A stretch of 14,217 nucleotides of DNA from an uncultured bacterium. Lineage in GTDB: Bacteria; Hydrogenedentota; Hydrogenedentia; Hydrogenedentales; JAEUWI01. The translations under genes and the position numbers were made by a program. The stretch spans positions 1-14,217 of the forward strand of contig CAXBPH010000186.1 in assembly GCA_963977445.1 (NCBI GenBank), in the 5' to 3' direction. Shown here one piece after another: positions 1-11,846 of the stretch (positions within the stretch are counted from its first letter, which is position 1; the number at the start of each line of letters is the position of its first letter). The notes below the pieces were generated by a model that was not told the origin of the DNA, did not search any database, and saw nothing but the letters and a program-made list of their open reading frames with translations.

Positions 1-980
1 TCAAGCTGAACAAATTGGCTGGCGAGTTTGCTGAGCCGTTGGGTAAGGGCTTCCGTGTCATAGCGTCGGTGCCGAACCACTCGATCCAGAAGCAGTTGGG
101 CTCGCTCGCGTATCGGCTGAATGACGATAGCCACCACGAGTGAAGTCAGCGCGATGCTAAGGATGTCATAGGCCTCACCGGCCTGGGAAAAGCCTTTGTG
201 AACCAGGGAGACCACGGAAAAGTAGAGTACAAATACCATGACCGTAACAACAGCGTAGGTGGTCGTGCGGGATACGATAACCCAGATGTCGAGGAGGTGA
301 TAGCGCACCATCGAATAGGCGAGGCCCGTAATCATCAATACGACGAAGCAGGGGCCGTAGAGTTCCATGCTGTTGACATCAAAGAGGGCGGGCAACAACA
401 CGTTGGTGGCAATGGCAAATCCCAGGCCACCAAAAATGGAGCCGAGTACGTGCTCAATCTGACGCCGCTGAATGCCCTCGCTGTGGGAAAGTTTACGAAA
501 CAGATTGACAAACATCAGCACCGTCGTCAATACCAGCATGGCGGTATAGGCCTGGAAGACGGGACCATACTTCGCACTGGGCGGCAAGACAGGAGAAACT
601 TCGAGGCTGACAATATACCAATCCGTATTGACGAGTGCGGTCAACACAAAGGCTCCGCCATACAGGAAGTACAGATACCACCGGATACCTTTGAAATGCT
701 GGTTGGGGAAATAACCGATGAAATGGTAGAAGGTGGCCGGGAGGAAACTGGCTACGCCAAAGGTCACCATAATCCAGAGGCGGGCGCTATCGTAGTTTCG
801 GCAATGTACGATGAAAAATACGCCGAGGGCCCACATGGAGAGATTCAGGGTAAGCAGGGCGAAGACACGGTGGGTGATACGTTCAGGATTGCGAATGAGG
901 ACAACAAGGCCCATCAGACAGCTCGATAGGGCTGACGTGATAAGTAAAAAAGAGGTTATCAGGGCGCTGTAATCCGTCAA
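1..980 (-). CDS. Membrane sensor protein, N-terminal part (HisKA_7TM-like multi-TM domain; probably a histidine kinase or other signal transducer); 3' end truncated by the window edge
   Basis: Not in the ORF track because the frame has no stop in the window. Manual translation from TTG at 980, 2 bp after the ketosynthase stop, gives MTDYSALITSFLLITSALSSCLMGLVVLIRNPERITHRVFALLTLNLSMWALGVFF...GLAYSMVRYHLLDIWVIVSRTTTYAVV...IQPIRERAQLLLDRVVRHRRYDTEALTQRLSKLASQF. It has about 9 hydrophobic segments. The RNP, AYxxxRYxLLDI and PxRxxxQxxxDRxxxxxxYD motifs are typical of 7TM-type sensors that precede GAF/HisKA domains. The output domain is not visible. Confidence 0.85.
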   Translation of the reverse strand, partial: MTDYSALITSFLLITSALSSCLMGLVVLIRNPERITHRVFALLTLNLSMWALGVFFIVHCRNYDSARLWIMVTFGVASFLPATFYHFIGYFPNQHFKGIRWYLYFLYGGAFVLTALVNTDWYIVSLEVSPVLPPSAKYGPVFQAYTAMLVLTTVLMFVNLFRKLSHSEGIQRRQIEHVLGSIFGGLGFAIATNVLLPALFDVNSMELYGPCFVVLMITGLAYSMVRYHLLDIWVIVSRTTTYAVVTVMVFVLYFSVVSLVHKGFSQAGEAYDILSIALTSLVVAIVIQPIRERAQLLLDRVVRHRRYDTEALTQRLSKLASQFVQL

Positions 981-982
981 AG

Positions 983-2227
983 TCAGGCTGCTTTTCGAAT
1001 GATTGTGGCGCTATGGGTGCCGCCAAAACTGATGGCCACAACCAGGGCAGCGCCTACGTCGTTCATGCGCGCGATTTTAGGGACGAAATCGAGGTCACAA
1101 TGGGGATCGGGATCGTCCAGGTTCACCGTCGGAGAAATAATGTCCCGGTTCAGGGCCAGCAGGCCGGCGGCCAAACCCAGGAGTCCGCCCGCCGCGTAGG
1201 ATTGACCAATCATGGATTTTACGGCACTTATAGGAATGCGGTATGCCTGATCGCCAAAGACCCGCTTGAAGGCATTGGTCTCGCTGCGGTCATACATATC
1301 AAGAGAGACGCCGTGTGCCTGGATACAATCTATTTCATTCTTATTGACGCCGGAGGCCCGCATGGCCCGCTCGATGGCTTGCGCCAGTCCCCGACCTTCT
1401 CTGTCCAGGATGAGGGGGTTGACGCCTTCGGAAGAGGAGCCATTACCGGCAACTTCTGCCAGAATGCGGGCACCGCGTGCCACAGCTTTATCCCGCCGCT
1501 CCAAAACGAGGGTGCAGGCCCCTTCGCTGAGCACGATGCCGTCGCGGTGTCGATCAAAGGGCCGCATGGCCAGCGCGGGTTCGTTGTTTCGTTTGGATAG
1601 AATGCCCAGGGCACAGGCACCCGCCATGGAAATGGGAAAAATGGGCGACTCGGTAGCGCCTACGACGGCGGCATCCACCTGGCCCATTCGGACCTGATTG
1701 TATCCCCAGGAAAGGGCATCCAGGCCGGTGGCGCAGCCACTGGATATGGTGATCGCAGGGCCCTTCACGCCGATATCGATGGAAACGTGGACAGTGGCCG
1801 AGTGTCCGGAAAAGGCCGAAGAAGCGAGCTTTCCGATGCCCTTATAGCCCGACGTTTCCATGGCGCGCATCTGCACATCATAACTCTCGTCGGGCGACCC
1901 GATGCTGGTGCCCACGGCGACGGCGATGCGTTCGGGGTCATACTTCGCGGCTTTGAGATCGGCATCTTCCACCGCAAGGCGGGAACTGGCGAGGGCCTGG
2001 TGGACGTGTCGGTTCCAATTGCGAACGACACTTTTTTTCATAAAATCTTCGGGATTAAAATCCTGTAACTCGCCCGCGATCTGACAGGGAAGGTCGCTGG
2101 CGTCGAATCGGGTGACGGCACGAATTCCAGATTTGCCGGCTTCAATGGATTTCCAAAATGCTTCCCGGCCGATTCCATTGCAAGCCAGAACGCCCATCCC
2201 GGTAATTACTACAGAGTCTGAATACAT
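983..2227 (-). CDS. fabF: Beta-ketoacyl-ACP synthase II (FabF/KS-alpha)-like ketosynthase with an atypical catalytic triad
   Basis: 414 aa with VVITGMG start, G-P-x-x-TISSGCATG (Cys165), RPFDRHRDGIVLSEGA, IQAHG (His305), AVKSMIGQS (Lys337; Gln342 where the second His is expected), PTVNLDDPDP and SFGG. The family is clear, but it is probably a specialised paralog rather than the housekeeping FabF. Confidence 0.85.
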   Translation of the reverse strand: MYSDSVVITGMGVLACNGIGREAFWKSIEAGKSGIRAVTRFDASDLPCQIAGELQDFNPEDFMKKSVVRNWNRHVHQALASSRLAVEDADLKAAKYDPERIAVAVGTSIGSPDESYDVQMRAMETSGYKGIGKLASSAFSGHSATVHVSIDIGVKGPAITISSGCATGLDALSWGYNQVRMGQVDAAVVGATESPIFPISMAGACALGILSKRNNEPALAMRPFDRHRDGIVLSEGACTLVLERRDKAVARGARILAEVAGNGSSSEGVNPLILDREGRGLAQAIERAMRASGVNKNEIDCIQAHGVSLDMYDRSETNAFKRVFGDQAYRIPISAVKSMIGQSYAAGGLLGLAAGLLALNRDIISPTVNLDDPDPHCDLDFVPKIARMNDVGAALVVAISFGGTHSATIIRKAA

Positions 2228-2235
2228 AGCGCTGC

Positions 2236-3918
2236 TCAGTTTCCCATTACTTTCTTCACGATCGATGGCGGATAGAAATCTACGGTATTGATCGATGCCG
2301 TAGCATGAATGTTAAAGGTGTCGACAAAATTCCGTAAGGCGGCTATATTGAGCGTCTTCATAGCCCGCTCCAGGCCGTGGATAAACCGGTTCTCCCGGCC
2401 CTGTTCACCCGATATCCGGGCAATGAGTCCTGCCTGGCAACCCGATTCAATGGGGGGGCAGATGCCTTCCAGTTCCTGATCGAAGGCCTTGAGCTGGCCC
2501 GCAATGGTGCTCCGTTTTCGCCCGGCGAAGGTGAAGGGGAGCCTCGCGGCCTCTTGAAAGGTGTTCATCGTCAAGGACGAGGTGGAAATCCAGTCTTCAA
2601 GTTGCCTGAGACGGGTGGCGAAATCAAATTCCGCTGCGTGTTGGTGCCAGGCGCTGCCGGGTATCAAGTGGGGCAGTAAGAGGCGCAGCGTGCCGGGTTT
2701 GCAACGGTGCAGTAAACGGATGGTTTCTGCACGAGAGTGGTAATCATCGGCGGGAACGGGATAAATGAAATCGGTGTGCAGGAATATACCCGACTCGCGA
2801 CAGGCGCGCAGACAGGATTCCACATCACTTATGGACCAGTTTTCGCCGAAATAATCGGAAAGCGTGATCTGACTGCCCGTCAGCAGGGAGAAACCGAGGG
2901 ACTGACAGCCCGAAGTGGATAGAAGTGACACCGTGTTCGGGCAAAGTTCAAAAACGTGGGCGTCGCGACTGTAGGCCACCGGAAAGGGCATGGTGATGCA
3001 TTCCCGGGCGAATTCGATGACCCCGTCCCTGGACGTATGGGATCCGGTCACATGAAAGGCCTGCGTCCCATAAAGTTCGTGGAGTGCAATCATCTCCCGC
3101 CGAAGCTGGCGGACGGAACGGGCCTGTGCCCTGCCGTGGGACTTGCCGCGATAGTGTCCCTGGTGATTGAGCCCGCGCCCGCCGTTCAAAGTGAAAAGAT
3201 TAAACTTGCCGCCCTCGCGCAATGCGGGATAGGACTCCGGGTGGTAGGCGGGGATGGCACTGGCGGGCAATGCCGTAGCACCCCAGTCGGGTGATTCGAA
3301 TAGATTGGCGTCCGCGCGGCAGATAATTCCCGGGATCTGTGGCCACGTTGCAGGCGCATCCCATCGGGCGGCCAGACTGGGCACGGATGATTCCGGTCGG
3401 GTGGTGCAGGCCACATCGATGGCGTTGCAATCCATCAATACCTGCCGACCAAAGCGTACCGCCATTTTACCGGCAAGGGCGATGCAAAGGCGGGGCCAAC
3501 GCATTTTCAGGGCTTCGGCGAGTTGCCGTGCCTCATGGAGGTCTTTTCGTCGCTGTGCCAGTAATACGACCACATTGGGCGGGCTATCCACCTCGCCCGA
3601 AGCGGCCAGGGCCCGATCGATGCGTCGCTTCAGGAAAAGGGCCAGCGCCCGACGTCGACCCCGCTGGGGAGAAGAGAAAAGTTGTTTCCAACCTGCGGCG
3701 ATGGGGGCACCCTTGTCGATAGTTGCCGCCAATATATGGGGCAATTCGTCGTCCAGAAGGGATTCCAGGGCATCTAGCGTGCCGTCATCCACAATGGTGG
3801 CGCCATGCCCATGCGCCCGTAGTGCACCGGCACACCGGGCCAACAGGGGCTGTGGCATGAGATCATCCACATGCAGGGGCATGCCGGGCAGCGCGTATAG
3901 TAGAACCCGTGTATCCAT
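2236..3918 (-). CDS. B12-binding domain / radical SAM-fold protein with degenerate Fe-S motif
   Basis: 560 aa that follow class B radical SAM architecture: PQPLLARCAGALRAHGHGATIVD (cf. PPLGLxxLAAxLRxxGHEVxIxD), QIPGIICR, RSVRQLRREMIALHELYG, SGCQSLGFSLLTGSQ (cf. AGCxxIxxGxESGS), TDFIYPVPADD...ETIRLL (cf. FIxGLPGET) and PGSAWH (cf. PGTPLY). The expected RGCxxxCxFC reads RGLNHQGHYR. Confidence 0.75.
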   Translation of the reverse strand: MDTRVLLYALPGMPLHVDDLMPQPLLARCAGALRAHGHGATIVDDGTLDALESLLDDELPHILAATIDKGAPIAAGWKQLFSSPQRGRRRALALFLKRRIDRALAASGEVDSPPNVVVLLAQRRKDLHEARQLAEALKMRWPRLCIALAGKMAVRFGRQVLMDCNAIDVACTTRPESSVPSLAARWDAPATWPQIPGIICRADANLFESPDWGATALPASAIPAYHPESYPALREGGKFNLFTLNGGRGLNHQGHYRGKSHGRAQARSVRQLRREMIALHELYGTQAFHVTGSHTSRDGVIEFARECITMPFPVAYSRDAHVFELCPNTVSLLSTSGCQSLGFSLLTGSQITLSDYFGENWSISDVESCLRACRESGIFLHTDFIYPVPADDYHSRAETIRLLHRCKPGTLRLLLPHLIPGSAWHQHAAEFDFATRLRQLEDWISTSSLTMNTFQEAARLPFTFAGRKRSTIAGQLKAFDQELEGICPPIESGCQAGLIARISGEQGRENRFIHGLERAMKTLNIAALRNFVDTFNIHATASINTVDFYPPSIVKKVMGN

Positions 3919-3979
3919 GTTGTTCAGCTGGTACTCTCTTCATCGAGTAGGTACAATATATAGATCGGGACACAGTTCG

Positions 3980-3996
3980 CCAACACTATATGTTGG
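3980..3996. promoter_or_regulatory. Palindromic candidate operator CCAACA-N5-TGTTGG
   Basis: Perfect 6-bp arms at 3980-3985 and 3991-3996, overlapping the predicted transcription start of the leftward operon. Confidence 0.35.
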
Positions 3997-4001
3997 AACA
4001 A

Positions 4002-4030
4002 ATACTATCATGTATACAACATATGTGCAA
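4002..4030 (-). promoter_or_regulatory. Putative sigma70 promoter of the rSAM-like/KS/sensor operon
   Basis: Minus strand reads TTGCAC (4030-4025), a 17-bp spacer, then TAGTAT (4007-4002) preceded by an extended -10 TGn. It lies in an AT-rich intergenic region about 85 bp upstream of the ATG at 3918. Confidence 0.5.
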
Positions 4031-4189
4031 GTACAAAAATGTACATGACGGAAATTTACGGTATATGCGGATCTCTTACGCTAAATAGAGGCATTGTAGT
4101 GGTTTGTGCGCGTTCTTGACCCGGATTGCTATCCCCTTGGGTGTAAAAATCGTACACCTCGGGAAAAATCCAATTCCTCAGTCAGAATA

Positions 4190-4219
4190 TTGAGGCCTCT
4201 GGTCTCGCCTCGGTACAAT
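4190..4219 (+). promoter_or_regulatory. Putative sigma70 promoter of the acyltransferase gene
   Basis: TTGAGG (4190-4195), 18 bp, TACAAT (4214-4219), followed by an RBS-like GAGAGG (4225-4230) and ATG at 4240. Confidence 0.4.
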
Positions 4220-4239
4220 ATCGCGAGAGGAACCCCGAT

Positions 4240-4860
4240 ATGAGTTTATTTACCAAATGGCGGCAAAAGCGCCTGGCCCGATTGTTCAAGCGCGTCGGTG
4301 CCGATTGCGTCTTTAATGCAGAGCACCTTGAGATCAAGGGGCGTGTTGAACTGGGTGACCGGTGCACGCTCGCCAACAATGTGTTGATGCGTACCCATAA
4401 AAAGTCCCACATTATCCTGGGTGACGACGTGAGTCTGGGCGATCACGTGATGATTGCCAGCAACGATTCGGTGGAAATTGGTTCCAACACCCGAATCGAT
4501 GCCTATTGTGTCATCCGAGATATGAATCACAGTTTCCGGGGCACCGATGTGCATTGGCGCCTCACGCCCCACTTGAGTGAACCCATTCGAATCGGCGAAA
4601 ACTGCTTTATCGGTGCCCACAGCTACATTATGCCGGGTGTGACGCTGGGCAACGGCGCCGTTATCCTGCCCCGCAGTATCGTGAGCAAGGATGTGGGCGA
4701 GTGCGAGATATGGGGGGGGAGCCCCCGGGCACAACGACTCGGTCACCGAACCGACGGGGATATCCAGAGCACCCTGAAGCGCCACTTGGACCTGCTGTCG
4801 CTCTACGGATTTGACGAAGCATCGGGCGATGACGACGAGACCGACGAGAAGCGTTCCTGA
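4240..4860 (+). CDS. Hexapeptide-repeat (left-handed beta-helix) O-acyl/acetyltransferase, maltose/galactoside acetyltransferase-like
   Basis: Repeated [LIV]G hexapeptides (VELGDRCTL, IILGDDVSLGDHVMI, VEIGSNTRI, IRIGENCFIGAHSYIMPGVTLGNGAVI), the conserved His motif DMNHSF, and SIVSKDV...WGGSP. RBS GAGAGG upstream. Confidence 0.9.
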   Translation: MSLFTKWRQKRLARLFKRVGADCVFNAEHLEIKGRVELGDRCTLANNVLMRTHKKSHIILGDDVSLGDHVMIASNDSVEIGSNTRIDAYCVIRDMNHSFRGTDVHWRLTPHLSEPIRIGENCFIGAHSYIMPGVTLGNGAVILPRSIVSKDVGECEIWGGSPRAQRLGHRTDGDIQSTLKRHLDLLSLYGFDEASGDDDETDEKRS

Positions 4861-5407: not shown

Positions 5408-8400
5408 TCAGGGTATCGCGATGTTCAGCTCAACCGTGCCCGTCGATCCAACTTCCACCGTCGCCGAGGCGAAGCGTGCTCCATCGAATCCATTGGACCC
5501 GATTTCCACCGCGAACACGGTGTACGTGCCTCCACCAAGCCCGCCAACATCAAACGCTCCCCCGGCCTCGACCATGGAAAACCCGGCGACGTTCGCTTGG
5601 AAGTCTGGGGACGTGAATAAGGTGGCAATGTTGTCGGTTTGGATGTTCCCATTGACTGCGATAACCTGACTTTGGCCAGCGCTGGAAATGCCTGATACGA
5701 TTCCCTGAATATGGGCACCCTCATCAATCTCCACGTCCAGACGAGTCGTTTGTCCATCGGTGACGGTCGTATCGATGACACGCATCTGTCGCTGCGTGCT
5801 GCCCGCCGCTACGGCGTGGAACATAACCCGATACGTTCCCGTCGAGAGACCTGAGATGGCGTAGGTCGCATTGGGCGACACCACGCCCTGCACCTGCTGT
5901 CCGGCACTATCTTCCCCGGGCATCGACGCAACCACGAAGCCTTCACTGATGGCCTGACCACCTATGGTGATGGTGCCTTCGATGGCACCCGATCCGAAGT
6001 CCACCGACAAGTCGACCGTGGTGGTGAATCCCGCTTCGACGGTCACCGTTTTGTTTTGGCTCTTGGTCGCACCGTCCCGGGTGACTTGAGCTTGTATCAT
6101 CACTTCGCCGGCAGGTAGCTTGTCCAAGGTATAGAATCCATTGGCATCGGTTGTCGAACGGTGCTGGCCTTGTGCCAGGCTTTGTGCGAAGACGTGTTGA
6201 TTGGCTATGGGCGCTCCATTGGCGTAGACCGTGCCCTCGATCGTGGCACCACCCGTCATGACGATTTCTACGTGGGTCGACTGTCCGTGGACCAGTTGGA
6301 CGTCGACCGTCGTATCGGGGAAGTCCGGGTGGATGGCGGTGATCTTCGCCAGGTCTTCGCCCACGGAATGAATATCGAAACGGCCTTCTGCGTCGGTGGT
6401 TGCTGCCGCGCCAGAGCTATTGTTATTCAGCATCCAGGGTTGAACCTGGGCGAGGAGAAAAATCCGGGCGTTTTGCACGGGTGCGCCTTGCATATCGCGC
6501 ACTACCCCCTCGATGGACGCGCCGGGCTGGAGGCGGAATTGAACGCCACCCGTTACGTCGTCGGGCGCGACATAGGGCACGTGTTGAATCTGGGGTGCAT
6601 ACCCGGCGGCCTTGGCATAGATGGTCGCTTCGCCCGCTTCAACCGTATCGATGGAGAAATGACCCTCTTCATCATAGAACGATACGTAGTTGGAGGTCTG
6701 GTAGCTGTATTCATCATTCGCCAGACCCTGACTGTGGGTGATCTCAAAATTGGCAATGGGCCGCCCTGTCGTGGCGTCAACCACCTGGCCTTCCACGGTG
6801 CCCCGACCTTCCAGGACAACGTCCAAATTACGGGTGCCGGCCTCAATGCCCTCACGCTGTTGGTGGCTATAGCGCGGGTGATGAATCTGCATGTTATAGC
6901 TCAGGCCTTCATCCACAGTGAGCTCGTACTTACCCTCCGTGTCGGCTTGAACGTAGGCACTGCTTCCCCCCGTGGGGCTGTATGCATTGACGGAGGCGCC
7001 TTCAATGGCTTCCCCGGCGGCATTGGTGATGCGACCGGAAATGGTGCTGCCCGGCCCGGCCTCGAAGACCAGGCGGACGCCTGTCAGTTCCTGTCCCTGG
7101 GTGACCGTGACTTCCTGCTCACCTTGTTGGTTTTGGCTCCAGGAATTGCGGCGTCGGACCGTAAGACGGTAGCTACCGGCGTCGAGGCTTTTGATGACGA
7201 ATTCCCCGTCCGGTCCCGTAAGTTCGGATCCGTTGTTGAAGCTGCCGTCGGCGGAGGCCACAGAGACAAACATATCCGGCAGGGGCTTGCCCGCCGTGTC
7301 CACCACCACACCAGTAATGCTCGCGCCTGGCGCCACGACGATTTCGATGTCTTCCAAACCGGAATCACCCGTGCTCAAGGGGCCCAGCTTGGGTGCCGTA
7401 TAGCCGCGACCGGAGACCCGAATCTCAACGTCCACGTTGGGTGAAAAGCCCCGTAACGAAAACGTGCCGTCTTCGGTGGTCAATACGTTTTCGCCCTCGC
7501 CGTTGTCTACAATCGGATTGCAGGCAACGTTCACGCCCTGAACAGGATCACCGGCCTTGTCCACCACGATGCCCGAGATCGTCAGGCCACGACGAACGGC
7601 AAAATCGATGTTTTCCAGTGCTTCGCCCAATTGGAGCGACACGGTTTTGTTTTCCCGCGATTCGCCGTGGAGATAGCCTTCTTTCCAACGACGACGCAGG
7701 GTGAAGCTGCCGCCGGGCATGCCCGATATGCGATAGAAACCGCTGGCATCACTGATCCCCTGTAGTTCCCGGCCTGTCGAGGGCTGGTTGCCACGGGCCT
7801 GAATCCGGATGCCGGAAATAGGCGCACCGGTTTCTGCGTCGGTTACCAGACCCGAAACGGAGCCCCCGTCGATAATTTTGAGCTCGACCCCGTCCACGGG
7901 TTCTGCGTTGGAGAGGGTGACCCGAGGACTTTCGCCCACGAGGATGCGCTCTTCATCGTCCAGGCGAATGACGTAATCGCTGTCGGCCAGGGCCGTGGCC
8001 TCGAAGGCACCATCTTTGTCGGTGAGTACCCGCTGTTGATTGCGACCGTTCTTCTCATCATTTACGGTTACATAGATATTGGGCACGGCCTTTCCGCCCT
8101 TTGCCTCGGTAACCGAACCTGAAATGCTGGAGCCCTGTTTCAGCACGATTTTTGCATTGACCTCACCGGTCTTGAAGGCTTCCGTAATTTCGCTAGCGTA
8201 ATCCGTTGCACCCACGGAGAGTTTCCACGTGCCCTTAACCAGGTTTGCCAAAGCGAAACGGCCTTCTTTGTCTGTTGAGGCCCAGACATTTCGGGCACCA
8301 TAGGAATATCGTTCCTGACCTTTTTCTTCAATGGATTCGGGGGTAACAATGGCACCGGCGACGGGTGCGCCCTCTCCGTTGAGGACCTGGCCGCTGATGC

Positions 8401-9025
8401 TTCCCGAGGGGCGCAGCTCCAGTTCGATCAAAGTCTGGGTCTCGTCATCGGTCAATCCGGCGGTGGTTACGGCACTGGCACCATCCTTTTCGGCGATGAC
8501 GCAAAGTCGCCCGCCTCGATTACCTGAAACCGCATTGACGGGAAGGTTGGTAATACGAAACTGGCCCCGATCGTCCGATTGGGTGGTCCACCGTGCAGGA
8601 TCGTCGGGGTAGGGGTCATAGGAATTCTCGCGCAGGACATAGTCCAGCACGACGCGGGCACCGGCAACGGGTGAGCCGTCGCCATGCCACGTAACGACAC
8701 CGGACACGATGCCCGGACCCCGGGGACGCTTCGCGTTTTTCGCCGCTTTTTCTTCGGGCGTATCATTGCTGTCTTCGTCGGCCGTGGCGGCCAGCTCTTC
8801 GTCAAATTCGGACGCCGAGGAGCGTGGCGAAGCGGCAGCGCTGGGAGAAGAGCCCGAGGAGAGGTTTAGATCAGCGCTGCTATCCGTTTGTCGAGTGGGC
8901 CTGGTAGAGCGGGATGACTCGACTCCGGGCGCAACTTTTTCCTCCTGGAAAAGGAGGAAACCGATACACCCCAACACCACAACAAAAAATAGTCCGATTA
9001 AAGACAGGCGTAGATTGTCACCCAT
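5408..9025 (-). CDS. Large membrane-anchored extracytoplasmic protein with about 12 carboxypeptidase-regulatory-like (CarboxypepD_reg / CnaB-like beta-sandwich) repeats
   Basis: Start moved from 9073 to ATG 9025, which has AGGGAG 8 nt upstream; 1205 aa. It has an N-terminal TM/signal anchor (LSLIGLFFVVVLGCIGFLLF), a Ser/Pro/acidic linker, then 12 units of GxISGxVxDxxGxPIxGAxV...TDxxGxFxxxxLxxGxYxL. No catalytic domain recognised. Confidence 0.85.
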   Translation of the reverse strand: MGDNLRLSLIGLFFVVVLGCIGFLLFQEEKVAPGVESSRSTRPTRQTDSSADLNLSSGSSPSAAASPRSSASEFDEELAATADEDSNDTPEEKAAKNAKRPRGPGIVSGVVTWHGDGSPVAGARVVLDYVLRENSYDPYPDDPARWTTQSDDRGQFRITNLPVNAVSGNRGGRLCVIAEKDGASAVTTAGLTDDETQTLIELELRPSGSISGQVLNGEGAPVAGAIVTPESIEEKGQERYSYGARNVWASTDKEGRFALANLVKGTWKLSVGATDYASEITEAFKTGEVNAKIVLKQGSSISGSVTEAKGGKAVPNIYVTVNDEKNGRNQQRVLTDKDGAFEATALADSDYVIRLDDEERILVGESPRVTLSNAEPVDGVELKIIDGGSVSGLVTDAETGAPISGIRIQARGNQPSTGRELQGISDASGFYRISGMPGGSFTLRRRWKEGYLHGESRENKTVSLQLGEALENIDFAVRRGLTISGIVVDKAGDPVQGVNVACNPIVDNGEGENVLTTEDGTFSLRGFSPNVDVEIRVSGRGYTAPKLGPLSTGDSGLEDIEIVVAPGASITGVVVDTAGKPLPDMFVSVASADGSFNNGSELTGPDGEFVIKSLDAGSYRLTVRRRNSWSQNQQGEQEVTVTQGQELTGVRLVFEAGPGSTISGRITNAAGEAIEGASVNAYSPTGGSSAYVQADTEGKYELTVDEGLSYNMQIHHPRYSHQQREGIEAGTRNLDVVLEGRGTVEGQVVDATTGRPIANFEITHSQGLANDEYSYQTSNYVSFYDEEGHFSIDTVEAGEATIYAKAAGYAPQIQHVPYVAPDDVTGGVQFRLQPGASIEGVVRDMQGAPVQNARIFLLAQVQPWMLNNNSSGAAATTDAEGRFDIHSVGEDLAKITAIHPDFPDTTVDVQLVHGQSTHVEIVMTGGATIEGTVYANGAPIANQHVFAQSLAQGQHRSTTDANGFYTLDKLPAGEVMIQAQVTRDGATKSQNKTVTVEAGFTTTVDLSVDFGSGAIEGTITIGGQAISEGFVVASMPGEDSAGQQVQGVVSPNATYAISGLSTGTYRVMFHAVAAGSTQRQMRVIDTTVTDGQTTRLDVEIDEGAHIQGIVSGISSAGQSQVIAVNGNIQTDNIATLFTSPDFQANVAGFSMVEAGGAFDVGGLGGGTYTVFAVEIGSNGFDGARFASATVEVGSTGTVELNIAIP

Positions 9026-9085
9026 GCCGCATGCTCCCTGCGTTAACTGTTTCAATATAACAACGTACCGCAACGTTAGAATATC

Positions 9086-9230: not shown

Positions 9231-11846
9231 ATGAAGATCAATCAGTTGCTCCAATATGAAATCCCTGAGGACGTGGTAGGGCGTTGGCGTACCTATGGGT
9301 GCGAGACCTTGTTGCCCTTGCAGGAAGAGGCCGTAAAACGACACGATCTTTTTGGCGCGAGGAACCTGCTGGTCCAGGCCCCCACAAGCTCGGGCAAAAC
9401 CTTTGTGGGAGAGATGGCGGCCATCCATACGGCTTTGCGTCAGAAGCAGGTGGTCTATCTGGTGCCCTTGAAGGCCCTGGCGGAAGAGAAATACCGCGAA
9501 TTTCATCAGAAATACACCGATTATGGCCTCAAGGTGATTTTATCGACCCGGGACCATCGCGCCCACGACCAGGAGTTGGAGCAGGGGAATTTCTCGATTG
9601 CCGTGGTGGTCTACGAGAAGCTTGCCCAATTGCTGGTGCGGCGGCCGGAGCGGGCGGCGGAAATCGATTTGGTTATCGCCGATGAACTGGAAATCCTCAG
9701 CGACCCCGAGCGGGGGCCCGGCGCGGAACTGCTGCTCACCCGGCTTCGTCAATCCCAGTGTCGTCTTATCGGGCTGTCGGCGGTTATCGGGGGTGCCCAA
9801 CGCCTGGCAAACTGGATGGACGCGACGCTGGTGCAATCGGACCAACGGCCTGTGGAGCTGCGCTACGGGGTCTTGTATGAAGGGGAATTTCACTACCGGA
9901 GCTGTAATGCCATGGGGCAGGGGAGTGAATCCCTGGTTGCGGGGTCCGGGGAATCTGCCGAAGAAGTCGCCCTGGAAAATCTTGCCGTCTTCGCCGAAGC
10001 GGGGGAGCGCAGTCTGGTTTTTGTGCGGGCGAAGCAGGATACCCGCCGGGGTGCTGATCGGATAGCGGCGCGATTGGATTTGCCCGCGGCGACCGTAGCG
10101 ATGGCCGCGTTGGAAGGCCTGGAGCCGACCCGATCCCGGGAAGCCTTGTTGGCGGTCATGGCCCACGGGGTCGCCTTTCACAATGCCGATCTTTCGCCGG
10201 AGGAACGGGTGGTGGTGGAGGAGGCCTTTCGTGTGGGTGAGGTGCTGGTGCTGGTGTCGACGAGCACCCTGGCCGTGGGACTGAATCTGCCCGCTCGGAA
10301 TGTGTTCCTCACCACGGAGAAATGGCGCTATGATAGCCAGCTGGGCATGCCGTGGAAGACGCCCGTATCGCATATGGAATATGAAAACATGGGCGGCCGG
10401 GCCGGGCGCCTGGGCATGGGCTACGACTATGGGCGGGCTATTCTCGTCGCCACATCGCCTTTCGAGAAGGAATTGTGCTGGCGGCGCTATGTGGAAGGCA
10501 CGCGGGAGTGTATTGAGCCCCAACTGGGGCGGGTGCCTTTGGAAGATCATGTGTTGCGCCTCGTGGCGTCGGGTCATTGTCGCACCCTGCGGGCCCTGGC
10601 GGCGTTCCTGGAACAGACCCTGACCGGCCAATGGGTCTGGGCGGAAACGGTCACCCCGGAAGAAACCCGCTCCCGGATTCGTGCGGCCGTCCACCGTTGT
10701 GTCAGCTACGACCTCATTGTAGAGGTTCCCGAAGAGGAGGGCCGTCCCATGGAGGCTACGCCCTTTGGACGGGCCGTGGCACAGAAAGGAATCGGGGTGG
10801 AGACCGCACGCTTGCTGCGAACGTGGGCCGAGGCGTCGCGCTACCGGGAATGGTGTGTTGCCGACGTGGTGTATGCCGCCGCCAGCACCCCCGAAGGGCG
10901 CGCGACCCAGGTTCTCCTTACGACCCGGGAATATGACGAGGCCGGTTACGTGGCGGAGTTGCGGGAGCGGACGCGACATGCCGGCATGGATAGGGACCTG
11001 CCCCTGGGCCGATTGTGTGCTGCGCGACTGCAACCCTTCTTCGAAGAGGTCCGTGCCACAAAAGTCACCTTGTTTCTACTGGATTGGCTCGACCAAATCC
11101 CTATATATGCCGTAGAGGAACGATACAACACAATGTCAGGACAAGTAATTGCGTCATCAGCGCAACTTTCCTGGTTGATTGACGCCATCGGGGCCATCGC
11201 CGTTGCGCAAGGGATGGAAGGACCCTTTACCGACAGGCTCGCCCGATTGGCTGCGAGCCTGTCCTGTGGTCTGGGCGAAGCGTTGCTGCCCGTGCACCAC
11301 GCCATGGAGGGTGGGCTGACCCGCGCCGAAGCGATTCAGCTTGGGGAGGTGGGGCTCGGTACCTTGGCGGCCCTTGCGGAAGCGCCCTTGTCCGTGCTTA
11401 CGCGCTATTTCGACGAAAATCGGGCCTGTCAGCTGCAGGTCCTTGCGAAAGCGGCCGTGCCGGTCGAGACGGCGATGGAGGGCGAGGTAGATTCCGCTGG
11501 CGCCCCGCCCCGTCTGGTGATTGATGAAGGGAAGCCCAATGAGATTGCCCTGGATGCCCATGTCGTGCCCCTGCAGCGTAAGCAATACGAGTTGATTCGT
11601 CTATTGGCCCAGGTGCCGGGGGAGTGCGTCCGTTACGAAACCATCTATGACACCTTGTGGAAAGGAGTGTGCGTTGAGCAGAGCCAGATGCACTATCAAA
11701 AACGGACCCTGCTTCAGCGCATCCAGGAGGCCTGTCCCGGCCGGGAAAAGGGCCTGATCGTTACACGAAGTCGCTATGGCTATGCACTCAACATGGCGCC
11801 CGACGCGGTTCTTGTTCGGCCGGCACCGGTCGTCTCAACGGCATAG
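9231..11846 (+). CDS. Ski2-like/Hel308-like SF2 helicase fused to a C-terminal OmpR/PhoB-type winged-helix DNA-binding domain
   Basis: 871 aa with Q motif LLPLQEEA, I APTSSGKT, Ia VPLKALAEEKYREF, II ADELE followed by DPERGP, III LSAV, RPVEL, IV LVFV, GVAFHNADL, V STSTLAVGLNLPA and VI NMGGRAGRLG. It also has the Hel308 winged-helix ATPFGR and an HhH-like segment. Residues ~759-855 match the Trans_reg_C pattern (LQRKQYELIRLLAQVPGECVRYETIYDTLW...LIVTRSRYGYAL). Confidence 0.9.
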   Translation: MKINQLLQYEIPEDVVGRWRTYGCETLLPLQEEAVKRHDLFGARNLLVQAPTSSGKTFVGEMAAIHTALRQKQVVYLVPLKALAEEKYREFHQKYTDYGLKVILSTRDHRAHDQELEQGNFSIAVVVYEKLAQLLVRRPERAAEIDLVIADELEILSDPERGPGAELLLTRLRQSQCRLIGLSAVIGGAQRLANWMDATLVQSDQRPVELRYGVLYEGEFHYRSCNAMGQGSESLVAGSGESAEEVALENLAVFAEAGERSLVFVRAKQDTRRGADRIAARLDLPAATVAMAALEGLEPTRSREALLAVMAHGVAFHNADLSPEERVVVEEAFRVGEVLVLVSTSTLAVGLNLPARNVFLTTEKWRYDSQLGMPWKTPVSHMEYENMGGRAGRLGMGYDYGRAILVATSPFEKELCWRRYVEGTRECIEPQLGRVPLEDHVLRLVASGHCRTLRALAAFLEQTLTGQWVWAETVTPEETRSRIRAAVHRCVSYDLIVEVPEEEGRPMEATPFGRAVAQKGIGVETARLLRTWAEASRYREWCVADVVYAAASTPEGRATQVLLTTREYDEAGYVAELRERTRHAGMDRDLPLGRLCAARLQPFFEEVRATKVTLFLLDWLDQIPIYAVEERYNTMSGQVIASSAQLSWLIDAIGAIAVAQGMEGPFTDRLARLAASLSCGLGEALLPVHHAMEGGLTRAEAIQLGEVGLGTLAALAEAPLSVLTRYFDENRACQLQVLAKAAVPVETAMEGEVDSAGAPPRLVIDEGKPNEIALDAHVVPLQRKQYELIRLLAQVPGECVRYETIYDTLWKGVCVEQSQMHYQKRTLLQRIQEACPGREKGLIVTRSRYGYALNMAPDAVLVRPAPVVSTA

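Follow-up and report, generated by a model that had tools for sequence, protein, structure and literature searches.

The 14,217-nucleotide contig CAXBPH010000186.1 (contig C186 below), from an uncultured bacterium of the phylum Hydrogenedentota, carries the front of a five-gene signaling operon that encodes, in order, a radical S-adenosylmethionine (SAM)-like protein, a ketosynthase, a seven-transmembrane (7TM)-GAF histidine kinase, a REC-GAF-PAS histidine kinase, and a sigma-54-dependent regulator. The first three of these genes lie on C186, which we analyzed in full and refer to as the window. Based on the gene order kept among relatives and on the output part of the first kinase, found on a second contig, the operon is a conserved unit, and a functional link of its two enzyme-type genes to the sensor is well supported. 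As a tentative explanation, to which we give somewhat less than an even chance, we propose that the kinase is supplied with a hydrophobic acyl ligand, which the ketosynthase either synthesizes or traps, and that the radical-SAM-like protein of this genus has no catalytic role.

The window is a complete contig of an assembly of 7.1 Mb in 464 contigs (below, C labels denote contigs of this assembly, L labels denote loci, and G labels denote genomes, G000 being the window's own). All three operon genes in it are on the minus strand: the radical-SAM-like gene at 2236..3918 (560 aa; a B12-type Rossmann domain and a radical-SAM barrel), the FabF-derived ketosynthase gene at 983..2227 (414 aa), and, at 3..980, the N-terminal sensor of histidine kinase HK1 (326 aa; HisKA_7TM), which runs off the contig. 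The junctions read TGA-8 nt-ATG between the radical-SAM-like and ketosynthase genes and TGA-2 nt-TTG between the ketosynthase and kinase genes, and such 8- and 2-bp spacers suggest that the three genes are transcribed together. The complete operon is unbroken at L002, a locus in a relative with a single-contig genome of 7.9 Mb, where the HK1 orthologue has 838 aa. Searching the assembly with the L002 orthologues, we found that contig C258 abuts C186: HK1 residues from about 333 to 838 leave the high end of C258 (G000:C258:8378-9898), and the gap between the two contigs amounts to about 6 HK1 residues. This part of HK1 carries GAF (a weak match), HisKA, and HATPase_c domains and is followed on C258 by a 639-aa kinase (REC-GAF-PAS-HisKA-HATPase) and then by a 461-aa regulator with REC, sigma-54-activator, and HTH_8 domains. 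A first-pass annotation made from the window sequence alone had described three minus-strand genes with these spacers, had noted the lack of any gene for an acyl carrier protein (ACP), chain length factor (CLF), FabG, or FabZ, and had looked to the sequence left of the window for the sensor output. The coordinates and junctions were confirmed, scans of the window open reading frames (ORFs) found none of the four (with CLF, FabG, and FabZ sought among the other six window ORFs), and the kinase output part, second kinase, and regulator were all found on C258.

The sensor part of HK1 matches HisKA_7TM (PF16927) at 52.1 bits (cut-off, 28.6). Eight hydropathy peaks rise above the threshold, and a weaker ninth lies at about residues 100 to 119, which agrees with the roughly nine transmembrane helices counted in the first-pass annotation. 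With HisKA and HATPase_c on the abutting contig, HK1 has the plan of a HisKA_7TM kinase, a multi-helix N-terminal sensor followed by the kinase core. At the other end of the cascade, the L002 orthologue of the sigma-54 regulator scores 345 bits on the NCBIfam LuxO model, below its cut-off of 800.

The first-pass annotation had proposed a possible acyl-derived signal synthase and receptor circuit, to be refuted if relatives did not share the gene order, and this order is indeed kept. In 27 of the 30 best loci, retrieved with 1.5-kb flanks, the ketosynthase gene directly follows the radical-SAM-like gene, and the 7TM kinase gene comes next wherever the flank reaches. Among 20 loci retrieved with long flanks, 17 have the complete five-gene order, and one more locus ends with its contig after the fourth gene; the remaining two are from G087, which has the radical-SAM-like gene, kinase 1, and then a PfkB-family gene without a ketosynthase, and from G091, which has a stand-alone, cysteine-bearing paralogue. 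The neighboring genes of the operon differ from genome to genome. Only one ketosynthase gene is present in the operon, here and in relatives, and this ketosynthase type (52 to 83% identity) occurs in 83 of 135 genomes of the phylum; searched with the window query, it was found in 0 of 23 genomes of family f3 and 0 of 10 of family f8. For the radical-SAM-like protein, 130 of the 135 genomes yield a match at E <= 1e-5; the weakest of these matches are probably other B12-type radical SAM enzymes.

Judging by its domains and closest solved relatives, the ketosynthase clearly derives from FabF. Both ketoacyl-synthase domains were detected (PF00109, 144 bits; PF02801, 90 bits), and the best structural relatives, aligned over the full length, are the FabF proteins of T. 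thermophilus (1j3n; E 2.6e-90) and B. subtilis (E 2.9e-82). On the NCBIfam FabF model TIGR03150 it scores 365.4 bits, under the equivalog cut-off of 493.75. Alignment to the same two FabF proteins places Cys165, His305, and Gln342 at the triad positions, in place of Cys-His-His, as the first-pass annotation had read it (a FabF-like ketosynthase with His changed to Gln). Lys337 and Phe401 are also retained, and Leu272, Ile273, Val307, and Leu309 replace Thr270, Ser271, Thr305, and Thr307 of E. coli FabF; these positions were equated in a gap-free alignment by adding 2 throughout to the E. coli numbering. The same pattern runs through 33 members of the ketosynthase family. In E. coli FabF numbering, Cys163, His303, Lys335, and the gate residue Phe400 are retained in 33/33; His340 is Gln and Thr270 is Leu in 33/33; Thr305 is Val in 32/33; Thr307 is Leu, Ile, or Val in 33/33; and Ser271 is replaced by Ile, Val, Met, Ala, or Leu. 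When the 120 top database relatives were screened with a simple pattern, Gln came up in 113; in the remaining seven the pattern probably hit the wrong site.

According to the accessible part of a preprint on E. coli FabF (bioRxiv 10.1101/2021.02.13.431092), both histidines coordinate the substrate carbonyl, His340 is termed essential for condensation, and Thr270, Ser271, Thr305, and Thr307 anchor the phosphopantetheine arm. By this comparison, the nucleophile and the acyl-side machinery are kept and the second-substrate site is systematically rebuilt. Because the two sides differ in this way, we infer a still-functional but altered ketosynthase, a protein that would handle something other than malonyl-ACP in the usual way. 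The ratio of nonsynonymous to synonymous substitution rates (dN/dS) of its gene is 0.017 to 0.064. A role as the main FabF of the cell is ruled out by a housekeeping acpP-fabF pair on C238, whose FabF has Cys-His-His, HGTST, and His340 intact; the only stand-alone ACP of the assembly adjoins this normal FabF. Among 8,000 candidates scored, 2,997 proteins reached E <= 1e-60, a count that surely includes ordinary FabFs, and the databases name these relatives only "beta-ketoacyl-ACP synthase family protein" or "3-oxoacyl-ACP synthase II."

The other enzyme-type protein has retained the fold of its family and has lost the catalytic site. Its AlphaFold model is confident (mean predicted local distance difference test [pLDDT] score of 87.5; predicted template modeling [pTM] score of 0.89), and the best Foldseek matches are the cobalamin-type radical SAM enzymes TsrM, MgmA, AprD4, CysS, OxsB, and TokK (E 1e-15 to 1e-10), with MiaB and BioB also among the matches; the partial TIM barrel of the radical SAM fold is present. 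The Pfam Radical_SAM model (PF04055) is barely reached, at 29.7 bits against a cut-off of 29.5. The N-terminal domain has the Rossmann fold and matches the profile of the TokK B12 domain, the sole match in a profile search of solved structures, and the Pfam B12-binding domain was undetected. Of the 13 cysteines of the protein, no three are spaced as CxxxCxxC or, more loosely, as C-x(2-5)-C-x(2-5)-C; the aligned cluster site reads G-L-N-H-Q-G-H-Y-R, with L250, G254, and R257 at the cysteine positions. A protein with this site should be unable to hold a canonical [4Fe-4S] cluster. The first-pass annotation had called this protein a "Cys-less" member of the B12/radical-SAM fold and had treated both enzymes as catalytically rewired. 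The fold and the missing cluster motif were borne out, but the protein is not literally free of cysteine; rewiring describes the ketosynthase, in which His340 and four pantetheine contacts are changed, but not the radical-SAM-like protein, which is better described as an ex-enzyme. The former Fe-S loop (residues 250 to 257; window 3170-3145, minus strand) is now conserved within the genus as G-[LYH]-x-H-x-G-H-Y-R-G, and this His-rich loop is a candidate new metal or structural site.

Loss of the cluster site is widespread in the family. A profile search of 1.84 billion representatives returned 382 relatives at E <= 1e-30, and we surveyed the best 150 of them together with the query. CxxxCxxC was kept at the aligned site in 53 of these 151 sequences, altered in 86, and deleted in 12, so that it is lost in 98/151. 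Distant relatives have the canonical ESRGCPxxCxFCxHP along with Pfam B12-binding and Radical_SAM domains; in the longer family members the extra length is a methyltransferase domain or contains no recognizable domain, and none of them is fused to a ketosynthase or a kinase. Within the phylum, the motif is kept in five of 37 genomes (G087, G091, G093, G126, and G127), and the others have lost two or three of the cysteines; a partial sequence from G083 (L030), outside the 37, also keeps it. In a ketosynthase tree built by a quick method and rooted with the distant locus L058, on a very long branch, the cysteine-bearing forms nest among cysteine-less ones. If the motif was never regained, this would imply at least three independent losses of the cluster site on strongly supported branches and four on the best tree; with losses and gains counted alike, plain parsimony is satisfied by only three changes. 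Independent decay is consistent with the partial states and with the variety of residues that have replaced the cysteines.

The cysteine-less genes are nevertheless held by purifying selection and are not relics: dN/dS is 0.12 to 0.17 in the four pairs among them in which dS is unsaturated (a cysteine-bearing pair, with saturated dS, gave 0.13). Full-length open frames are kept across the order, and 30 columns of the protein alignment are invariant. On this comparative evidence the radical-SAM-like protein of the window's genus is an ex-enzyme that descends from cysteine-bearing ancestors. In G126 (L043, 12322-16254, minus strand), the radical-SAM frame stays open for about 750 codons further upstream with no recognizable domain, which is probably no real extension.

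Two groups with a common C-terminal ending (23 cysteine-bearing and 85 cysteine-less members) were compared with 30 canonical members without this ending. Seven residues, F242, E367, D391, D392, H394, R401, and R405, are common to both tailed groups and absent from the canonical group; in the cysteine-less group F242 is conserved at 87% and the other six at 94 to 100%. The positions relaxed in that group are the three cluster cysteines, R265, K/R359, W424, and F431 to F433. In the window protein the patch reads P-x-D391-D392-x-H394..E398..R401..R405. The ending has the consensus ...RPF.P..AAVGN-COOH (the window protein ends in VMGN), and the tail is disordered in the model (residues 544 to 560, pLDDT below 50). 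Patch and tail together are conserved at 79 to 100% in the cysteine-less group. Scored with a strict pattern, 70 cysteine-less and 22 cysteine-bearing representatives have the ending, and 28 cysteine-less and 31 cysteine-bearing ones do not. Every radical-SAM-like gene of the phylum with kinase 1 downstream of it has the AVGN ending, including those of G075 and G087, which have no ketosynthase; it is absent from the stand-alone G091 paralogue, from the canonical L058 protein, and from most distant canonical B12-type radical SAM enzymes. Because patch and tail occur in both cysteine-bearing and cysteine-less members, this set of non-catalytic features is predicted to have arisen in a still-enzymatic protein and to have outlived its catalytic site.

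The limits of the operon can be read from loci in which most of it is missing. Six cassette-less loci of families f3 and f8 (L135 to L140) have the cysteine-less gene alone, with an ending that is no longer GN. In f8 (L136 and L140), a PfkB-family kinase gene stands directly after it. The window's own genome has a copy of this gene just downstream of the regulator gene (C258:3962-4861, minus strand); with that copy as the query, this highly conserved gene for a sugar or nucleoside kinase (58 to 88% identical) was found in 17 of the 31 loci examined (among L033 to L051 and in L136, L140, and L142), in most of them a short way past the last operon gene, and no NCBIfam model names a substrate for it. 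Since the first gene in f8 directly precedes the same PfkB gene, the four genes from ketosynthase to regulator behave as a cassette whose loss leaves the first gene in place, with the PfkB gene marking its edge. A different arrangement occurs in G032 (L141), in which AVGN is kept, a hexapeptide transferase gene lies upstream, a convergent PfkB-family gene lies downstream, and no cassette is present within 3.5 kb; this PfkB-family gene differs from the one above and was found by Pfam only. In G106 (L039, 14939-15831) the PfkB orthologue matches in two overlapping pieces in different frames and may be frameshifted. In f3, a mannose-1-phosphate guanylyltransferase-type gene (L135, 7940-9067; L139, 5805-6932) is convergent with the stand-alone cysteine-less gene.

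A related cassette occurs outside the phylum. The metagenome contig L058 encodes, in order, RpoN, a REC-kinase, a FadL/TodX-type outer-membrane channel, a canonical B12-type radical SAM enzyme, a ketosynthase, a 7TM-GAF-PAS kinase, a REC-PAS kinase, a sigma-54 regulator, and a REC-GAF-HD protein. Its core is the same as in Hydrogenedentota (ketosynthase, B12-type radical SAM protein, 7TM kinase, further kinase, and sigma-54 regulator), and the intact radical SAM gene overlaps the ketosynthase gene by 11 nt. However, the third triad residue is Asn in L058 (Cys-His-Asn) and Gln in Hydrogenedentota, whose radical SAM partner belongs to the AVGN-tail subfamily and has mostly lost the cluster site. 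L058 came from a metagenome scan with the ketosynthase alignment, the patterns of which were FabF-generic, and most of the 80 loci retrieved are ordinary FabFs; the only close family members are L053 and L054, and distant ones with Gln or Asn are L058, L060, L077, and L132. The nearest protein-atlas clusters are from Omnitrophota, Planctomycetota, Thermodesulfobacteriota, and Elusimicrobiota.

Compared with FabF (KAS II), the ketosynthase shares the two-domain thiolase fold, the nucleophilic cysteine, the first histidine, the lysine, and the gating phenylalanine, but it has Gln for the second histidine, hydrophobic residues at the pantetheine contacts, and an operon position away from acpP and fab genes. 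The radical-SAM-like protein has the two-domain fold of class B radical SAM enzymes (TsrM, TokK, CysS, AprD4, OxsB, and MgmA); unlike them, it has lost the cluster cysteines, has PxDDxHTxAETxRxxxR in place of the PGET-type motif, and has gained the C-terminal AVGN tail.

In the Vibrio CqsA/CqsS and LuxM/LuxN systems, a gene for the synthase of a small hydrophobic signal lies beside the gene for a multi-helix membrane kinase, and output passes through the sigma-54-dependent LuxO; the synthase is a pyridoxal 5'-phosphate enzyme or an acyl-homoserine lactone synthase. The operon resembles these systems in layout and logic only, with a candidate synthase gene beside a multi-transmembrane kinase and a sigma-54 regulator as output. 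Here, in contrast, the part of the synthase would fall to a ketosynthase, a HisKA_7TM-type protein is the sensor, and the relay runs through a second REC-kinase rather than LuxU; the ketosynthase is also far more conserved than is usual for a signal synthase that forms dialects.

Pairs of a FabF-derived enzyme and an inactive partner encoded just upstream are a further point of comparison. They include KS/CLF and, by the accessible part of a preprint, the anammox pair amxFabF2/amxFabFmut (bioRxiv 10.64898/2026.05.19.726425). The order of an inactive partner gene followed by the enzyme gene is the same here, but the partner has the radical SAM fold and no second ketosynthase paralogue lies alongside. 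As described in that part of the preprint, amxFabFmut lacks the cysteine and both histidines, whereas the window ketosynthase retains the cysteine and one histidine. A place in the ladderane pathway is not supported, as Hydrogenedentota do not belong to the anammox lineages and the FabF pair of the latter is different. The chains of PDB entry 9s5h (FabF-type synthases, with no organism stated) match no better than ordinary FabFs. Our literature search, which did not extend to subscription journals, found no paper that describes the cassette; the accessible parts of the anammox FabF preprint (bioRxiv 10.64898/2026.05.19.726425) and of a review of lipid-modifying radical SAM enzymes do not mention it, and the papers on HisKA_7TM that the search found name no ligand in their accessible parts.

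In the explanation that we favor, the ketosynthase would still be an acyl-thioester enzyme, fed by acyl-ACP or acyl-coenzyme A (acyl-CoA) from elsewhere, and its product, or a covalently captured hydrophobic acyl compound, would be the input of the membrane kinase. Kinase 1 would then signal to the receiver of kinase 2, which would hand the signal to the regulator, acting in turn on sigma-54 promoters, a logic similar to that of CqsA/CqsS feeding LuxO. The radical-SAM-like protein of this genus would no longer modify the compound but would act as a non-catalytic partner (by binding, scaffolding, or gating), a role that may be carried by the DDxH..R..R patch and the AVGN tail and that may have begun in a still-enzymatic protein. 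Several observations weigh against this explanation. All four polar pantetheine contacts are gone, and the protein could have ceased to handle thioester substrates. The ketosynthase is far more conserved than the synthases of strain-specific quorum systems usually are, and a fixed metabolite or an internal sensor would fit equally. No PP-binding (ACP) domain was found on C186 or C258; no exporter was found in the Hydrogenedentota locus; and no FadL gene lies on the window contig or C258, the sole FadL match of the genome being on contig C336. The radical-SAM-like gene and the kinase occur without the ketosynthase in two genomes (G075 and G087), so the cascade can exist without it, and the radical-SAM-like gene occurs without ketosynthase and kinases in f3, f8, and G032, so its role cannot depend wholly on the cassette. 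A wider version, in which this is an undescribed multi-phylum signaling system whose FabF-derived enzyme (amide third residue, greasy pantetheine tunnel) provides a lipid-type ligand to a seven-helix kinase, and whose radical SAM partner is turning from an enzyme into a regulator by gaining first the patch and docking tail and then undergoing at least three independent Fe-S losses, is possible but rather doubtful; the losses were counted on a gene tree made by a quick method, in which the outgroup (root) branch is very long.

The rivals differ in what they make of the two enzyme-type proteins. Both might be internal co-sensors that release nothing and report the state of acyl-ACP or acyl-CoA, and hence of lipid synthesis, to the cascade; Cys165 might become acylated, for instance, or the hydrophobic tunnel filled. 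Their part would be that of accessory sensor subunits, comparable to PII proteins with NtrB. The uniform conservation of the ketosynthase fits this idea at least as well as it fits a ligand-producing enzyme, as its low dN/dS and invariant altered pocket would suit a fixed universal ligand and a conserved partner such as the single housekeeping ACP. Repeated loss of radical SAM chemistry in a retained operon, the lack of an exporter or channel in the Hydrogenedentota locus, and the cytoplasmic GAF domains of both kinases point the same way. Yet a large 7TM sensor would be needless for a purely cytoplasmic input, and the FadL-type channel for hydrophobic molecules beside the L058 cassette points to traffic across the envelope; on balance we regard internal co-sensing, the main rival, as somewhat unlikely. 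A plainer idea, that the enzyme-type genes serve to build or alter a membrane lipid or secondary metabolite and that the two-component genes only control their expression, with no ligand link, draws on the frequent placing of enzyme genes beside their regulators, on the cysteine-bearing radical SAM versions in relatives, and on the intact Cys-His-Lys core, with which a FabF-type protein is plausibly active. But the conserved unit holds no ACP, reductase, dehydratase, or transferase gene, its neighbors vary between genomes, the enzyme-type genes come first in the regulators' own operon with no sigma-54 promoter found upstream, and one of the two enzymes is predicted to be catalytically dead in most of the 37 phylum genomes. 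We consider such co-regulated biosynthesis unlikely.

The cassette may instead simply sit amid the radical-SAM-like gene and the flanking sugar-type genes with which that gene would belong, namely those for the hexapeptide acetyltransferase (upstream) and PfkB (downstream). The PfkB gene of the 17 loci, which comes straight after the radical-SAM-like gene in the cassette-less L136 and L140, the different, convergent PfkB-family gene of L141, the sugar nucleotidyltransferase gene adjoining the f3 gene, and the divergent hexapeptide transferase of the window's genus, G077, and G032 would all be accounted for. The pairing of radical SAM and ketosynthase genes is, however, older and wider than the phylum, as seen in the 11-nt overlap at L058, a contig on which no PfkB match was found, and the AVGN ending is gone from the cassette-less L135 to L140, though kept in L141; we think this rival quite improbable. 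Finally, the radical-SAM-like gene has lost its catalytic cysteines and evolves faster than its neighbors (26 to 59% versus 57 to 83% identity across loci), as a functionless decaying relic kept by chance or for translational coupling might do. Its full-length frames across the order, dN/dS of 0.12 to 0.17, 30 invariant columns, and confident model, together with a patch and tail conserved at 79 to 100% in the cysteine-less group, make a relic hardly credible.

If the proposed ligand-and-kinase circuit holds, it would provide the first functional context for three groups: the HisKA_7TM sensor family, the large unnamed FabF-like branch that databases label simply as ketoacyl-ACP synthases, and a B12-type radical-SAM family of whose closest representatives most (98/151) have ceased to be radical enzymes. 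The recurrent disappearance of the cluster site from an otherwise frozen operon is a natural experiment that separates the catalytic from the non-catalytic role of the radical-SAM protein. The same observations call for caution in annotating these genes as lipid-biosynthesis enzymes in uncultured phyla.

Upstream of the operon, the intergenic region at 3919..4239 contains, on the minus strand, a sigma-70-like site (TTGGCG-17-TATATT, at 3983..3955), although promoter- and terminator-like sites are not above chance in number. A sigma-54 promoter pattern matched the window 19 times against 16.0 expected, with no convincing match upstream of the operon. Across this region, and divergent from the operon, lies a plus-strand gene for a hexapeptide-repeat acyl/acetyltransferase (4240..4860; 206 aa). 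Hexapeptide transferase genes are likewise divergent from the radical-SAM-like gene in the window's genus, G077, and G032. The transferase is a syntenic neighbor in that genus and a few other genera and a candidate member of the system.

Further upstream, on the same strand as the operon, the window encodes a 1,221-aa protein (5408-9073, minus strand) with at least ten CarboxypepD_reg-type repeats. It matches an anammox S-layer glycoprotein model weakly and the NCBIfam model "radical SAM-associated putative lipoprotein" at 71 bits (cut-off, 39.8), with no single stretch passing alone, and a 58%-identical orthologue occupies the same place in G066. An 871-aa DEAD/Helicase_C helicase follows at 9231-11846 (plus strand), with a C terminus that weakly resembles Trans_reg_C, the OmpR-type winged helix (22.7 bits, under the cut-off of 26.2); a fusion of helicase and winged helix would be unusual if this weak match is real. 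Elsewhere in the same genome, G000:C46 (about 6.7 to 16.3 kb) has an open frame of 2,307 codons with four tandem ACP domains and several ketosynthase-like matches, which resembles a cluster of the polyunsaturated fatty acid (PUFA)-synthase type (PfaA-like).

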